A stretch of 64,000 nt of DNA. It comes from an uncultured Gammaproteobacteria bacterium (lineage in GTDB: Bacteria; Pseudomonadota; Gammaproteobacteria; JAKDMP01). Under the pieces are notes generated by a model that saw nothing but the letters and a program-made list of their open reading frames with translations, was not told where the DNA came from and did not search any database. The DNA is taken from NCBI GenBank assembly GCA_963843735.1, contig CAWJLN010000009.1, positions 232,182-296,181 on the forward strand, read 5' to 3'. Position numbers and translations under genes: made by a program. Below, one piece after another: positions 18,173-24,885 of the stretch. How positions within the stretch are numbered: position 1 is the stretch's first letter; each line of letters starts with the position of its first letter.

Positions 18173-19192
18173 CTACGAATCCAGCGGGCTTCGCACGCCC
18201 CGCCCGCCTCGGTTGAGCACGTGCGTATAAATCATGGTCGTCTCGACGTTCTTGTGCCCCAGCAATTCCTGCACGGTGCGGATGTCGTAGCCGGACTCGA
18301 GAACATGCGTAGCAAAGGAATGCCGCAACACGTGCGGCGAAACCGGCTTCGTCAAACCGGCCCGCTTGGCCGCACTCCTCACGGTGCGTTGCACCTGCTG
18401 CTCGCTCAGGTGATGGCGCCTCACGGCACCCGAGCGCGGATCGGTCGAAAAACGGGCGGCAGCGAACACATACTGCCAGGCCCATTCACCCGCCGCCCTG
18501 GGATATTTACGCGCCAGCGCATGCGGAAGCCACACGTTGGCCCGTGCTTGCGCCCGGTCGCGTTCGTAGACCGAACGCCGCACCGTCAAATGCGCGCGCA
18601 GCGGCTCCGCCAAGGTCTGCGGCAACACGGTGACCCGATCCTTCGCGCCCTTGCCGTCGCGCACGAGTATTTCCCCGCGCGACAAATCGAGGTCTTTCAC
18701 CCGCAGCCGAACGCCTTCCATCAAACGCATCCCCGTGCCGTAGAGCAGCCGGGCGATCAGCCCCGGCTCGTCGGCCGGCAACTCGTCCAGCAGGCGCCGC
18801 ACCTCCGAACGCGAGAGCACGACCGGACGCCGCTGCGGCTTCTTGGCCCGCGTAATGCCGTCCAGCCACGGCAAATCCACGCCGAGCACCTCCCGGTACA
18901 GAAACAGAAGGGCCGAGAGCGCCAGGTTCTGCGTACTCGCCGCCACATTCTGCTGCACCGCCAGGTCGCTCAGAAACGCCTCGATCTCGACCGCCCCCAT
19001 CTCGCGCGGATGGCACTTGCCGTGAAAAAGAATGAAGCGTTTGATCCAATGGATATAGGACTGCTCCGTCCGCAGACTGTAGTGTCGCTTGCGGATTTCG
19101 GATCGGACCTGATCGAGCAATTTGGGAGCGTTTTTATTTTCGAATGAATGACTTACAGGAACTTTTGACGCGTTTCTTTTCGTTGATTCCAC
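18173..19192 (-). CDS. intI: integron integrase
   Basis: 339 aa; tyrosine recombinase boxes ([37 protein letters not shown]) plus IntI-specific insertion [38 protein letters not shown]; GTG start. Confidence 0.95.
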
Positions 19193-19287
19193 TCTTGCCG
19201 CCGATATGCTATGATTCGGCCATGATTATACGTCACATTTCCAGATTAGATGTCGCTTCGACATCTAGTTAGCGTTGGGCGTTAAGG
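19193..19287 (+). other. attI region (integrase-proximal recombination site)
   Basis: Between intI start and first cassette ORF: perfect palindrome TAGATGTCG-ctt-CGACATCTA (19247-19267) directly followed by three GTT cores (GTTAGCG 19268, GTTGGGC 19274, GTTAAGG 19281). Exact crossover point not determinable. Confidence 0.5.
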
Positions 19288-19294
19288 GGGCAAC

Positions 19295-19687
19295 ATGCGT
19301 AACAGGGCAGCAGTCATATTCTTCGCGGCTCTCGTTCCTTTTCCCGTATTTGCATCATCAACTTGGCCGCCCACGGTCAAGGACATTAAGCAATGTCGGG
19401 GTAACCCGAGTGTTGTTGCGCCATGTTTTCCCGTTCACGGTCGGCTGTTTCTGGCAAATGGTGCGCCGGGCCTGCGGATTTGGCATGTCGGCACAAAGCG
19501 AATTCTTGGGATCCTGACAAACGATCACCCAATAATACCTCCTGGGATTCGCAAGCATTTGGCGATTGGCGTTAGGATTTACGCCAATTTTGAAGTATGC
19601 CCCTTCACGAAATCAAAACCTGGATCGAATGCAGTACGTTTGCGTACAAAGCGCATCTCATATCGTCTTACAGGATTATCGCGATGA
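19295..19687 (+). CDS. cassette 1 ORF: secreted protein of unknown function
   Basis: 130 aa; signal peptide MRNRAAVIFFAALVPFPVFASS; AAGGGGG upstream of ATG; followed by attC. Confidence 0.6.
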   Translation: MRNRAAVIFFAALVPFPVFASSTWPPTVKDIKQCRGNPSVVAPCFPVHGRLFLANGAPGLRIWHVGTKRILGILTNDHPIIPPGIRKHLAIGVRIYANFEVCPFTKSKPGSNAVRLRTKRISYRLTGLSR

Positions 19688-19735
19688 GCGCAAGAAGCCA
19701 AAAATAACTGTCTTGCGGGGCACATATACACTCGC

Positions 19736-19795
19736 GCCCAACAGTTCATCCAAGCGGACGCGCTAACCGCGCGCCGCTTAATTTATGCGTTAGGC
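19736..19795 (+). other. attC site 1 (60 bp)
   Basis: R'' GCCCAAC (19736-19742) ... AAGCGG/CCGCTT inner arms ... R' GTTAGGC (19789-19795). Confidence 0.8.
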
Positions 19796-19807
19796 TTAGG
19801 AGGGGAC

Positions 19808-20314
19808 ATGCTTGGACTGGTTCTAATCGCGGCGTCAACAGTTTGGCTGCCTGCTCAAGAATCGACTTCAAAGCCCTTCGCTTCTCAGGTGCCTGGATTA
19901 TCGGCGCAACTATGCCTGGAACGACTTGAAGACAGCGGTGCAATGAATGGACATCCCAGTTGGGTTGACGTCTATAACAAGCTTGACGAACCCTACGCGG
20001 ATTACAGTGTCGCGCTATCCGGTGGTCAAGCAGCTTGCGTTTTCCTCTTGCCCGGACGTTACACCATCATCGCCAGTTCCAATAAATTCGATTCGCCAAT
20101 ATCCCCTAACAAAAAGGAATGTAAGTCGTCACCTTACAAGGTGACCATAAAGGCTAGAGAAAGAATCACCTTGGATGTGTGGCCTGCGCTATCGCAGTCA
20201 AACGGTGGAGGCTATAGCAACTGCGGTTGGGATGTACTCCCTCGCGGGAAACCTCAATCCGGCAACTGTATGGTTTGGCCTGATCAAGTGGGGTGTGGTA
20301 ATGCCTCCAAGTAG
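19808..20314 (+). CDS. cassette 2 ORF: secreted Cys-containing protein of unknown function
   Basis: 168 aa; AGGAGGGG SD; hydrophobic N-terminus MLGLVLIAASTVWLPAQ; strand-rich (LLPGRYTIIASSNKF...YKVTIKARERITLDV). Confidence 0.65.
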   Translation: MLGLVLIAASTVWLPAQESTSKPFASQVPGLSAQLCLERLEDSGAMNGHPSWVDVYNKLDEPYADYSVALSGGQAACVFLLPGRYTIIASSNKFDSPISPNKKECKSSPYKVTIKARERITLDVWPALSQSNGGGYSNCGWDVLPRGKPQSGNCMVWPDQVGCGNASK

Positions 20315-23224: not shown

Positions 23225-23731
23225 ATGGGCCTATTTGACGCATTCATCGCGAATTTTCTAGGAACTCTGCTTGGCGGCATAGTCCTCGCGCTCTTGTTCT
23301 TTTGGGCGCGGGAGAAGTTGTTTCCGTTGCCGAATATTACGGGTCAATGGTATTTCGAAATGCGAACTACTACTACTTCGTACAGACCATACGAGAATAT
23401 GATTCTTCGCTACGTCGCCATGCTATGGCGAGAAGATAGCCGAATTGAAGGCACGGTTGAAAAGGTCTATGAAGATTCGTCTACTGGACAGCGGAGTTAC
23501 ATTGGCAAGAATCGCACGCGGGGCCGGGTTCAGGGATACGTACAGAAGAATTACTTCGGCAGGGATCGAGTCTTCCTGCATATAGTCGAGGAAGGGCACG
23601 GGCGTGAATCTACGAACTTCTGCGACCTGTACGTGCAGCCCGACGGCGAGATGGCGGGCGAATTCAGCTCAATGGTTGCTGATCAAAGCGGGGACGTGAC
23701 TTGGAGACGAGAGTCCTTCCGAGACAATTGA
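23225..23731 (+). CDS. cassette 6 ORF-a: single-TM, beta-strand-rich protein of unknown function
   Basis: 168 aa; TM helix FLGTLLGGIVLALLFFW, then ITGQWYFEMRTTTTSYRPYENMILRYVAMLWRE...; stop TGA 23729-23731 overlaps next ATG by 1 nt. Confidence 0.6.
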   Translation: MGLFDAFIANFLGTLLGGIVLALLFFWAREKLFPLPNITGQWYFEMRTTTTSYRPYENMILRYVAMLWREDSRIEGTVEKVYEDSSTGQRSYIGKNRTRGRVQGYVQKNYFGRDRVFLHIVEEGHGRESTNFCDLYVQPDGEMAGEFSSMVADQSGDVTWRRESFRDN

Positions 23732-24405
23732 TGCTAATCCTCTCCGCGCCGTTCATTCTCGTTTCAAGAATGGCCGAGATATTCGATGTGTGGAATATAC
23801 GGGAGGATATCGGACGCTGTCTACGGATAGTTGACCTTGTTGGTGGTCTGGTTCCAAATAGCTTTGTGGGCGTACTTGTAGCGGCTGAAGATCACCGAAA
23901 TCACTTACATGTCGGGGTCGATCCGATTGCGATCATTCGTGCGGCTTACTCGCTTGTTTTGGGGCGCTCCTTGCAGGGTGCAAGCACGATTGAGCAACAG
24001 TTGGTTCGCGTTGTGACAAACCGTTACGAGCGGACACTGATCCGCAAAGTACATGAACAAGCGCTTGCGATCGCCATATCTCGGCGCCGACCCAAAGCGC
24101 TCATAGCGTCCGCATACCTTGCGGTCGCGTTCTATGGCTCCCGTTATGAAGGGCTGGATGGCCTGAGAAGAGCATGCGGACGTGAGCTCAATCTCGCGAG
24201 TCTTTTGTCCATCAGAGGTATGATCGCGAGATTGAAATATCCGGAGCCGATGCATCCGTCGGCTGCCTGGAAGGATAGACATCGAGCACGCACGGAATAT
24301 ATTGCCACTCGCCAGGGAGCGGCTAACAATGCGCTGCAGCCGACCGAACAAACTGCTCACGAGCTTTGCCTACGCAAAGCTCGCGCCAGTTTGCTCGGCG
24401 GCTGA
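23731..24405 (+). CDS. cassette 6 ORF-b: divergent stand-alone GT51 (peptidoglycan transglycosylase-like) protein
   Basis: ATG 23731 (alt. ATG 23770); EDHRNHLHVGVD, QGASTIEQQLV, RKVHEQALA, AFYGSRYEGLDGL, GMIARLKYPEP align by eye to GT51 motifs of PBP1b/MtgA; 3' end runs into attC6. Confidence 0.65.
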   Translation: MLILSAPFILVSRMAEIFDVWNIREDIGRCLRIVDLVGGLVPNSFVGVLVAAEDHRNHLHVGVDPIAIIRAAYSLVLGRSLQGASTIEQQLVRVVTNRYERTLIRKVHEQALAIAISRRRPKALIASAYLAVAFYGSRYEGLDGLRRACGRELNLASLLSIRGMIARLKYPEPMHPSAAWKDRHRARTEYIATRQGAANNALQPTEQTAHELCLRKARASLLGG

Positions 24406-24420
24406 GCTTGGTCGTTGGGG
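24321..24420 (+). other. attC site 6 (100 bp)
   Basis: GGCTAAC (24321-24327) ... GCAGCCGACCG / CTCGGCGGCTGAGC arms related to attC3/5, extra central hairpin GAGCTTTGC-ctac-GCAAAGCTC, R' GTTGGGG (24414-24420). Confidence 0.65.
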
Positions 24421-24433
24421 GAAATTTACAGAT

Positions 24434-24811
24434 ATGACCTCGTCCGGCATAGTTGACATCTCGAGCGGTCACTCAGTCGCGGACACCGCTGATCGACTCG
24501 AAGCGCTCCTGAAGGCTAAGGGCGTGAAGATATTTTCGCGCATCGACCAGGCCGCAGAAGCCAAAGCAGTCGGTCTCATCATGCGACCGACGGTGTTGCT
24601 GATTTTCGGCGATCCCAAAACCGGCACCCCGCTCATGAATCGGTATCCGTCGCTTGCGATCGACCTTCCCCTCAAAGCCCTGATCCGGGAATCGTCGGAA
24701 GATAAAGTGTGGCTCAGCTTCACTTCGCCGGAATTCCTCAAGCAGCGCCACGGCTTGGATATTTTGCCGTTTGGCCCGATGGTAAGGCTCTTGGAGGCTG
24801 CGACCAAGTGA
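24434..24811 (+). CDS. cassette 7 ORF: DUF302 domain protein
   Basis: ATG 24434 (MTSSGIVDISSGHSVADTADRLEALLKAKGVKIFSRIDQAAEAK...LLIFGDPKTGTPLM...DLPLKALI), DUF302 pattern. Confidence 0.8.
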   Translation: MTSSGIVDISSGHSVADTADRLEALLKAKGVKIFSRIDQAAEAKAVGLIMRPTVLLIFGDPKTGTPLMNRYPSLAIDLPLKALIRESSEDKVWLSFTSPEFLKQRHGLDILPFGPMVRLLEAATK

Positions 24812-24830
24812 GCATCTTGCCACGAGAAAC

Positions 24831-24885
24831 ATCCAATCGAAACAGATTGAGCCCAACCAGTCGTTGGCCCATCTTTACGTTAGCG
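24831..24885 (+). other. possible degenerate terminal attC
   Basis: ATCCAAT...central mini-palindrome GCCCAAC-cagtc-GTTGGCC...GTTAGCG; arms only partly complementary. Confidence 0.3.

Follow-up and report, generated by a model that had tools for sequence, protein, structure and literature searches.

The question raised by positions 18173-24885 of a 64,000-nt stretch of contig CAWJLN010000009.1, from an uncultured gammaproteobacterium, is whether they hold a genuine integron, what it carries, and whether it could still be exchanging its gene cassettes. In this stretch (hereafter the window, meaning the whole 64 kb that was analysed), an open reading frame (ORF) of 339 amino acids on the minus strand (18173-19192) lies opposite a run of plus-strand ORFs that extends to ~24811. 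We are highly confident that the locus is a genuine chromosomal integron carrying seven foreign gene cassettes, and that one of its recombination sites has been hit by a site-specific insertion sequence (IS). An earlier note on this DNA had proposed seven cassettes on one strand, divergent from the integrase gene intI, and this count is correct. A considerable fraction of bacterial genomes hold integrons, and most of these carry genes whose function is unknown.

Integrase, attC sites and genomic setting

The product of the minus-strand ORF is an integron integrase (IntI). It scores 475.1 bits against the NCBIfam model TIGR02249 'integron integrase' (cut-off 265), matches PF00589 and PF13495 in Pfam, and over residues 26-338 gives a gap-free alignment with VchIntIA/IntI4 (PDB 2A3V; E 1e-89). 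This alignment runs across the IntI-specific insertion, which the earlier note had read in the recombinase and for which it had suggested a check; carried out in substitute form, that check finds the region present. The catalytic residues R, K, HxxR, H and Y are kept, and the motifs GxxxR, GKGxKxR, LGH and IYTHV are conserved. The models for XerC, XerD and XerA score far below their cut-offs on the same protein. Since the IntI1-type equivalog of NCBIfam also remains below its threshold (396.5 bits against 435), IntI is not a class 1 integrase.

The palindromes that close the plus-strand units are integron recombination sites (attC), as a structural model of their bottom strands indicates. When all attC sites were aligned with MAFFT, the variable stems threw the 3' halves out of register; the covariance model was therefore seeded from two 60-nt sites only, with further alignment left to Infernal. 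This seed model (R1) was built from the bottom strands of 19736-19795 and 20324-20383 and comprises an R helix, an L helix and one bulged base; on the window, it recovered three further sites of the earlier list on the correct strand. Applied to 80 loci that a search with IntI had drawn from other genomes, it found 125 sites at E<=0.1 with a median spacing of ~700 nt. Every one of them is on the same side of intI as attI, and 123 have the expected orientation, whereas 640 kb of sequence across intI hold none (binomial p ~6e-98). R1 therefore describes integron attC sites.

A second model (R2), built only from the 125 foreign sites and run over the whole window with filters off, gave seven hits, all on the minus (bottom) strand. 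Integrase gene and sites are the following, with coordinates on the window and R2 scores:

18173-19192, minus strand: intI, integron integrase, 339 amino acids, GTG start
19736-19795, plus strand: attC1, 60 nt, 61.4 bits, E 1.7e-12; R helix, L helix and one bulged base on the bottom strand
20324-20383, plus strand: attC2, 60 nt, 75.4 bits, E 7e-16
20609-20680, plus strand: attC3, 72 nt, 53.3 bits, 86% identical to the rebuilt attC5 (see below)
21190-21246, plus strand: attC4, 57 nt, 39.0 bits, E 4e-7
21629-21696, plus strand: main part of attC5, 45.0 bits at 21629-21699 with mismatches only in the R helix; its last four bases lie at 23196-23199
24321-24420, plus strand: attC6, 100 nt with a long variable stem, holding the stop codon of the last gene of cassette 6; 38.6 bits, E 5e-7
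24851-24885, plus strand: remnant of attC7 with R'' GCCCAAC, R' GTTAGCG and both spacers; 17.8 bits, E 0.052

The covariance-model check suggested beforehand, here in substitute form with R2, thus scores the listed sites: six are borne out at the coordinates first given (38.6-75.4 bits), while the seventh is real yet covers 24851-24885 and not 24831-24885. No other R2 hit at E<0.8 occurs in the 64 kb, apart from weaker opposite-strand matches of the same sites. A hit of R1 at 39443-39494 (E 0.014) was taken as chance, as the better model R2 did not recover it. The whole window has no match in Rfam at gathering thresholds, a result uninformative for attC; to our knowledge, Rfam holds no attC family.

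Pairing across the six strong window sites reaches 92.8%, against 23-38% with partners slid, and 94.1% in the 125 foreign sites; these figures come from model-fitted alignments and are somewhat inflated. Compensatory changes are frequent in the six window sites, where 8 of the 12 L-helix pairs, and 9 of the 19 pairs overall, have changed on both sides. In all six, the fold of the bottom strand is more stable than that of the top one. Judging from their sequences, attC1-4 and attC6 are intact and should still be recombinogenic. In attC7, the L box and the variable stem are deleted, 33 model positions being replaced by 2 nt; its position fits the end of the last cassette, and the remnant is probably not recombinogenic.

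The cassettes are compositionally foreign. G+C is ~0.64-0.69 in the flanks and ~0.44-0.57 in 19000-21700 and 23150-24950, with a block of host-like ~0.64-0.68 between these two stretches and a return to the host level after ~24950. Per cassette it ranges from 0.478 to 0.553 (mean 0.519, n=7), against 0.641 in the left flank, 0.632 in the right flank and 0.624 in intI. The drop that had been announced from hand counts of single lines is therefore real, but smaller than those counts suggested (0.519 on average against 0.63-0.64 in the flanks).

The window also encodes RecQ, PriA, Ppx/GppA, PntB and a TonB receptor. The presence of RecQ, PriA, Ppx and PntB, together with the metabolic and regulatory character of the flanking genes, places the locus on a chromosome. 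Sedentary chromosomal integrons usually hold more than 20 cassettes with highly similar attC sites, and the superintegron of Vibrio cholerae is their archetype. The integron of the window resembles the latter in its integrase (aligned end to end with VchIntIA, 2A3V, the IntI-specific insertion included), in its chromosomal location and in cargo of unknown function that includes HEPN-type proteins. It differs in having 7 cassettes and not ~180, and attC sites of 43-86% pairwise identity and 57-100 nt where V. cholerae has near-identical repeats (VCRs). The sedentary type assigned in the earlier note consequently stands in part: the integron is chromosomal and has no adjoining transposition genes, but there are only seven cassettes, attC identity is 43-86%, and the flanks share no synteny with the two closest relatives. 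The large array and uniform sites of a classic sedentary superintegron are absent here (seven cassettes; attC pairwise identity 0.43-0.86; lengths 57-100 nt), and so is a chromosomal position shared with related taxa, although the latter is a weak test, the relatives being different species. Given its few cassettes, its varied attC sites and the lack of a position shared with relatives, the locus is better called a small chromosomal integron.

An IS1111-type insertion sequence in attC5

The fifth attC site is split by an insertion sequence that the earlier note had overlooked:

21697-23195, minus strand: IS1111-type insertion sequence, 1,499 bp, G+C 0.644 and host-like, antisense to the cassettes
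21956-23065, minus strand: its transposase, 262.7 bits against NF033542 'IS110 family RNA-guided transposase' (cut-off 140)
21782-21875, minus strand: conserved core of its non-coding region, candidate seekRNA/bridge RNA

Cassette 6 is accordingly smaller than had been implied, and the R' core GTTGATA given for the site at 21629-21700 is actually GTT followed by the first bases of the insertion sequence.

The transposase is of the DEDD (RuvC-like) IS110/IS1111 type, with Pfam matches to PF01548 (59 bits) and PF02371 (75 bits). According to Siddiquee et al. (2024, PMC11187229), the inverted repeats of IS1111-family elements are subterminal, with 7 nt beyond them at the left end and 3 nt at the right; tnp is followed by a long non-coding region, and the target is not duplicated. 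We set the ends at 21697 and 23195 by this 7/3-nt rule (PMC11187229): the repeat ATGACTTCC occurs at 21700-21708 and 23180-23188, and its extensions are GAT (3 nt) and ACTGTCT (7 nt). The non-coding part comprises 259 nt downstream of tnp and 130 nt upstream. Removal of 21697-23195 rebuilds ...AAGCGTTAGCC (CTCAAGCGTT joined to AGCCGC...) with no bases duplicated. The rebuilt R' core, GTTAGCC, is canonical and pairs at 6 of 7 positions with R'' GCCTAAC. The insertion point thus lies inside the R' core of attC5, at GTT|AGCC, two bases 3' of the G|TT crossover.

A group of IS1111 elements that target attC sites (ISKpn4, ISPst6, ISPa25; the IS1111-attC group) offers the closest parallel, compared here by described features only. 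They share with the window element the DEDD transposase, the 7/3-nt extensions, the long 3' non-coding region, the lack of target duplication and insertion at one end of attC. A difference is the inverted repeat, which at 9 bp is shorter than the 11-13 bp usual for IS1111, and which tells against the assignment. The closest transposases in the plasmid collection are IS110-family genes of Burkholderia with 55% identity, and exact look-ups of the transposase with two alternative starts returned no match.

Unannotated DNA of 128 plasmid records is 73-85% identical to the core of the non-coding region (21782-21875); in Burkholderia, one such stretch is found 115 nt downstream of a transposase gene of the IS110 family. 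Its sequence is compatible with the scaffold of a seekRNA/bridge RNA. Possible guides are less distinct: GCGTTA, which spans the insertion point, occurs twice in the non-coding region, both times in element-variable segments and in the same sense, and ATATCAG spans the joined IS ends. These matches are suggestive, yet at 6-7 nt they are near the chance level, and guide/target complementarity reaches 5-7 nt only. A TTGACA lies 14 nt from the right tip of the element and a CAGTAT in its left end, an arrangement by which the two could form a junction promoter at the joined ends.

Two further observations concern this type of element elsewhere. Six IS110-family transposase fragments occur in five other arrays (L015, L018, L034, L044, L074), all antisense to the cassettes as in the window; they are of no help on attC targeting, being 31-45% identical and none directly adjoining attC hits. 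On plasmid pP6W1 of Novosphingobium sp. P6W, an IS1111-type core with the right end GGCAGTCAT lies at ~1750-2000 in an intergenic region, with no transposase gene nearby. This copy may be left over from a decayed element, or it may be a non-autonomous derivative reduced to the guide-RNA part.

With the 3' part of the R' box gone from attC5, cassettes 5 and 6 would be unlikely to excise separately. A 1.5-kb antisense element at this place probably also blocks read-through into cassettes 6 and 7.

The attI junction, close relatives and the state of the integron

The attachment site attI borders intI on the side of the array:

19193-19280, plus strand: attI region, with the probable crossover at G19274|T19275 in GTTGGGC; attI itself covers ~19268-19280

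Upstream of the crossover lie a palindrome, AGATGTCG-CTT-CGACATCT, and a GATTATACGTCA motif common to the relatives. The two closest of these, both gammaproteobacterial metagenome-assembled genomes, have integrases 87% (L001) and 81% (L002) identical to that of the window. DNA homology with L001 begins at the stop codon of intI, continues to window position 19276, within GTTGGGC, and ends there. Beyond intI-attI, the window has no DNA or translated similarity to L001 or L002, and the first cassette is different in all three genomes. Likewise, none of the eight cassette proteins of the window is present in the arrays of the 80 related intI loci. Unshared array content and a break of homology at attI are together the pattern of a working or recently working integron.

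The wider surroundings of this integrase are the chromosomal integrons of soil and freshwater Proteobacteria in the IntI1/IntI3-related clade (Nitrosomonas, Thiobacillus, Methylobacter, Solimonas), whose IntI proteins are 62-68% identical to that of the window. They have the same divergent layout of intI, attI and array, the same attC model fits both sets of sites, and their arrays are likewise short with mostly unknown cargo. Unlike theirs, the cassette content of the window is unique among the 80 loci compared, and its IntI falls below the IntI1-type cut-off.

In L002 (1-1270, minus strand), the first ORF is unrelated to that of the window, and the first attC (~1244-1311) is followed by a structured leader and a reverse-transcriptase ORF; this site looks to have been invaded by a probable group IIC-attC intron. 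Taken with the insertion sequence of the window, it means that attC sites of this lineage have been hit by two kinds of site-specific mobile element.

The history that we propose for the locus is as follows. IntI, as a tyrosine recombinase, would join the folded bottom strand of an attC site with the adjacent attI, promoterless cassettes thereby being inserted at attI and excised from the array, and seven cassettes of foreign composition have accumulated on the plus strand. An IS1111-family element has inserted in one orientation into attC5; elements of this family move by a DEDD transposase guided by an RNA from their own 3' non-coding region. By parting GTT from the rest of the R' core, it has probably frozen cassettes 5 and 6 as separate mobile units.

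Several points weigh against this account. A simple scan of the plus strand at 18900-19300 gave no sigma-70-like match of >=9/12 for the cassette promoter Pc, and by eye only a weak promoter-like TTGATT-16-TATGCT is found upstream of the array. No LexA-like box occurs between intI and attI. Since neither element was found, expression of the cassettes and SOS control can only be presumed. Exact-sequence look-ups of window proteins gave only the source contig and a Logan assembly of the same organism, so that no conspecific genome was found in which recent cassette turnover could be read directly. Finally, R2 descends from a window-derived seed, hence is not fully independent, and its hit on attC7 is only marginal (E 0.05).

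The same promoter and LexA results would be expected if the integron had decayed, platform and array being inherited as a fixed genomic islet whose cassettes are no longer exchanged, and the broken attC5, the lack of an L box in attC7 and the shortness of the array point in that direction too. We consider such decay unlikely, though still a serious contender: the intI ORF is full length with all its catalytic motifs, five attC sites are intact with 93% pairing, and the array shares nothing with those of the relatives while homology breaks exactly at attI, both of which are expected from turnover.

It is a good deal less probable that the integron is a mobile one, borne by a transposon, plasmid or integrative element. 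The intI-attI module alone is common to the two closest relatives, whose flanks are wholly different, and attC sites as heterogeneous as these (57-100 nt, 43-86% identity) are seen in mobile integrons. However, no tni/Tn402-like, transposase or conjugation genes adjoin intI or follow the array, intI itself has a host-like G+C of 0.624, and the neighbouring oxoprolinase, MarR and metallo-beta-lactamase (MBL)-fold genes are at host G+C in a window that also holds RecQ, PriA, Ppx and PntB. That there is no integron at all, and that a phage- or Xer-type recombinase merely sits beside an island whose palindromes are terminators or repetitive extragenic palindromic (REP) elements, might be suggested by a nearby tandem repeat with REP-like palindromes (112 bp x 3, 17150-17488), but this is already refuted by the integrase profile, which IntI passes while remaining far below the XerC/XerD/XerA cut-offs, and by the foreign-site model, whose palindromes occur in 80 other genomes only beside intI and in one orientation. 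No Rfam family matches the palindromes either.

The cassettes and their neighbours

The array comprises the following cassettes and genes:

19275-19789, plus strand: cassette 1, G+C 0.515; ORF 19295-19687, 130 amino acids, signal-peptide-like N-terminus
19790-20377, plus strand: cassette 2; ORF 19808-20314, 168 amino acids, signal-peptide-like N-terminus
20378-20674, plus strand: cassette 3; ORF 20393-20614, 73 amino acids, two hydrophobic segments
20675-21240, plus strand: cassette 4; ORF 20701-21231, 176 amino acids, single HEPN-fold protein with the motif RNRAAH
21241-21694, plus strand: cassette 5; ORF 21250-21549, 99 amino acids
23196-24414, plus strand: cassette 6; two genes that overlap translationally and are not separated by an attC
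23225-23731, plus strand: first gene of cassette 6 (C6a), 168 amino acids, transmembrane helix and beta barrel
23701-24405, plus strand: second gene of cassette 6 (C6b), 234 amino acids, GT51 glycosyltransferase domain, PF00912 at 83.5 bits (cut-off 27)
24415-24879, plus strand: cassette 7; ORF 24434-24811, 125 amino acids, DUF302, PF03625 at 64.8 bits

In cassettes 1-5 and 7, the ORF starts 10-27 nt after the G of the preceding GTT, the spacing that had first been read from the sequence. The resistance and known-defence families of Pfam, NCBIfam and PADLOC match none of the cassette proteins, in agreement with the earlier statement that no recognisable resistance determinant is encoded; PADLOC, run on all cassette proteins and both neighbours, gave nothing relevant. 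The labels HEPN-like, GT51-like pair and DUF302 likewise hold, through fold matches, GT51 motifs and PF03625, respectively. The description of the cargo as orphan or undescribed fits the four small proteins of cassettes 1, 2, 3 and 5, which match no family in Pfam, NCBIfam or PADLOC, but not the pair of cassette 6, which has hundreds of homologues, nor the HEPN protein, whose family counts 219 clusters.

Cassette 6 holds the most interesting cargo of the seven. Homologues of C6a form 266 clusters and keep 57-73% identity between bacteria that are only distantly related. Its AlphaFold2 (AF2) model, with a predicted local distance difference test score (pLDDT) of 93, consists of one transmembrane helix (residues 3-31) followed by an up-and-down barrel of ~9 strands, whose likenesses in PDB are designed barrels, avidins and lipocalins. 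Among viral structures, C6a is matched best by a library entry named 'SMODS-associating 2TM beta-strand rich effector' (E 8e-4), and one homologue is named S-2TMbeta effector in UniRef. Searches of 30 members against Pfam, NCBIfam and PDB sequences up to E 10 gave nothing meaningful, and the phage genome collection holds no match.

C6a resembles Cap15/OptE, the S-2TMbeta proteins of CBASS/Panoptes, in having an N-terminal membrane anchor and a small beta barrel of ligand-binding type, and in being encoded in a two-gene operon on mobile DNA. It differs from them in its single predicted helix, where they have two, and in its partner, a GT51 protein in place of a nucleotide cyclase. Membership in the S-2TMbeta family is not supported: the barrel fold is present, but the two-pass transmembrane topology, a sequence match to the family and a nucleotide-signal partner are all absent.

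In C6b, all GT51 motifs are kept, and the catalytic glutamates E63 (motif 1, ED) and E119 (motif 3, RKxxE), D64, GASTIEQQ and RK are invariant in 26 sequences. It shares with MtgA, a monofunctional GT51 protein, a length of ~230 amino acids, a hydrophobic N-terminal segment, the five GT51 motifs and both catalytic glutamates. However, motif 2 reads STIEQQ in C6b and STITQQ in MtgA, and C6b is always coupled to C6a and carried on mobile DNA. Its score against the MtgA equivalog TIGR02070 is 39.9 bits, so far below the cut-off of 182.65 that C6b is not an orthologue of the housekeeping MtgA.

The two genes stay together in many settings. A GT51 gene directly follows the C6a homologue in 41 of the 57 metagenome loci with downstream room, and in at least 10 of these 41 an attC follows or overlaps its 3' end. 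In Desulfuromusa kysingii, the pair forms a single cassette between attC sites of 27.9 and 47 bits. In Allochromatium vinosum (CP001896.1, 1539477-1549971), the V-type ATPase operon is split between its A and B genes by the pair together with a DUF4160 gene, and no attC is found at this locus at E<=1. On an IncF NDM-4 plasmid of E. coli, a C6a homologue with 35% identity is followed by a 'transglycosylase domain-containing protein', and some C6a homologues without the short partner adjoin genes resembling class A penicillin-binding proteins. The pair is undescribed in the defence library PADLOC and in the literature searched on GT51 or transglycosylases with integrons or defence.

We tentatively propose, as a possibility that we rate below even chances, that cassette 6 is an undescribed two-gene module moving between integrons, plasmids and chromosomes, in which a Cap15/OptE-like membrane-anchored barrel is combined with a GT51 enzyme. 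With low confidence, C6b could be expected to act on lipid II at the membrane and C6a to be its membrane-anchored partner, whose barrel would bind a small phosphate-bearing or lipid ligand, a guess prompted by invariant Arg, Lys and His residues. By analogy, the pair may be an envelope-linked defence or guard system in which the GT51 protein works on lipid II while the barrel senses a lipid-linked or glycan ligand and acts on the membrane. Less exotically, it may be a mobile accessory peptidoglycan polymerase with a membrane partner, conferring for example tolerance to GT51 inhibitors. The output could accordingly be either additional glycan synthesis or an attack on the membrane in the manner of Cap15.

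The protein of cassette 4 is, on the strength of its model, a HEPN-fold protein: it carries the conserved Rx4H motif, and the AF2 model (pLDDT 92) finds its best PDB matches in YggD/MtlR and HepS (9OIJ/9OIK), at template modelling scores (TM) of 0.50-0.59, with HepT also among the top matches. Against DUF4145 it scores 21.0 bits, just under the cut-off of 23.1. Its family comprises 219 representative clusters in which the motif RNxAAH is conserved, and R86, N87 and H91 (R86-N-R-A-A-H91) are conserved in 40 sequences. HepS is the single-protein HEPN anticodon nuclease of the Gifsy-1 prophage, which acts in abortive infection (PMC13043305). The cassette protein resembles HepS and MtlR/YggD in being a single protein of ~170-190 amino acids with a HEPN fold and an Rx4H motif on mobile DNA, although identity to them is only 14-18% and TM 0.50-0.59. 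Members of the MtlR type are not nucleases. A HepS-like role in abortive infection is, by analogy, a reasonable guess for cassette 4.

In L001 (1-430, minus strand), the first cassette encodes a small Rx4H protein (KLRNQMGH) with no similarity to the cassette 4 protein at E 1e-4. HEPN-type single-gene cassettes may recur in this group of integrons.

At the end of the array, the DUF302 cassette is probably fixed in place, since the terminal attC7 has lost its L box.

The immediate neighbours of the integron, all at host G+C, are genes for an oxoprolinase, a 175-amino-acid protein of unknown function, a MarR regulator and an MBL-fold protein. The stretch that separates the first two of these holds 3.0 tandem copies of a 112-bp unit, 97% identical to one another (17150-17488, also 17114-17201). 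Each unit holds a G+C-rich palindrome, CCCCTCTCCCCTTGCGGGAGAGGGTTGGGGTGAGGGG, which translates as ...SPLAGEGWGEG..., and like peptides (PSPLAGEGKGEG and PSPLAGEGESR) are found inside the 1,241-amino-acid hydantoinase/oxoprolinase ORF (13354-17079), as though its coding sequence had taken up REP-like elements. The 175-amino-acid ORF (17518-18045, minus strand) lies directly downstream of intI, has an HExxH-like motif (HELCHH) and no Pfam match, and is absent from the flanks of related intI loci. Just past the array and the MarR gene, a 336-amino-acid MBL-fold protein with a signal-peptide-like N-terminus is encoded at 25498-26508 on the minus strand; given its host-like G+C and the lack of an attC, this gene is not a cassette.

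The platform itself is unsurprising, being one more well-delimited chromosomal integron in an uncultured proteobacterium. It does provide a clean natural case of an RNA-guided IS1111-type element in an attC core, with both halves of the target recoverable, which makes it useful for understanding how such elements read attC sites and freeze cassettes. A single-protein HEPN cassette of the MtlR/HepS structural type fits recent evidence of compact anti-phage genes in integron cassettes. The pair of a transmembrane barrel and a GT51 protein is a strongly conserved and widespread module, its pairing holding even at 35% identity on the NDM-4 IncF plasmid of E. coli. Should this pair indeed serve in defence, its logic would parallel that of cyclase and S-2TMbeta pairs, but would be wired to cell-wall precursor metabolism and not to nucleotide signalling.

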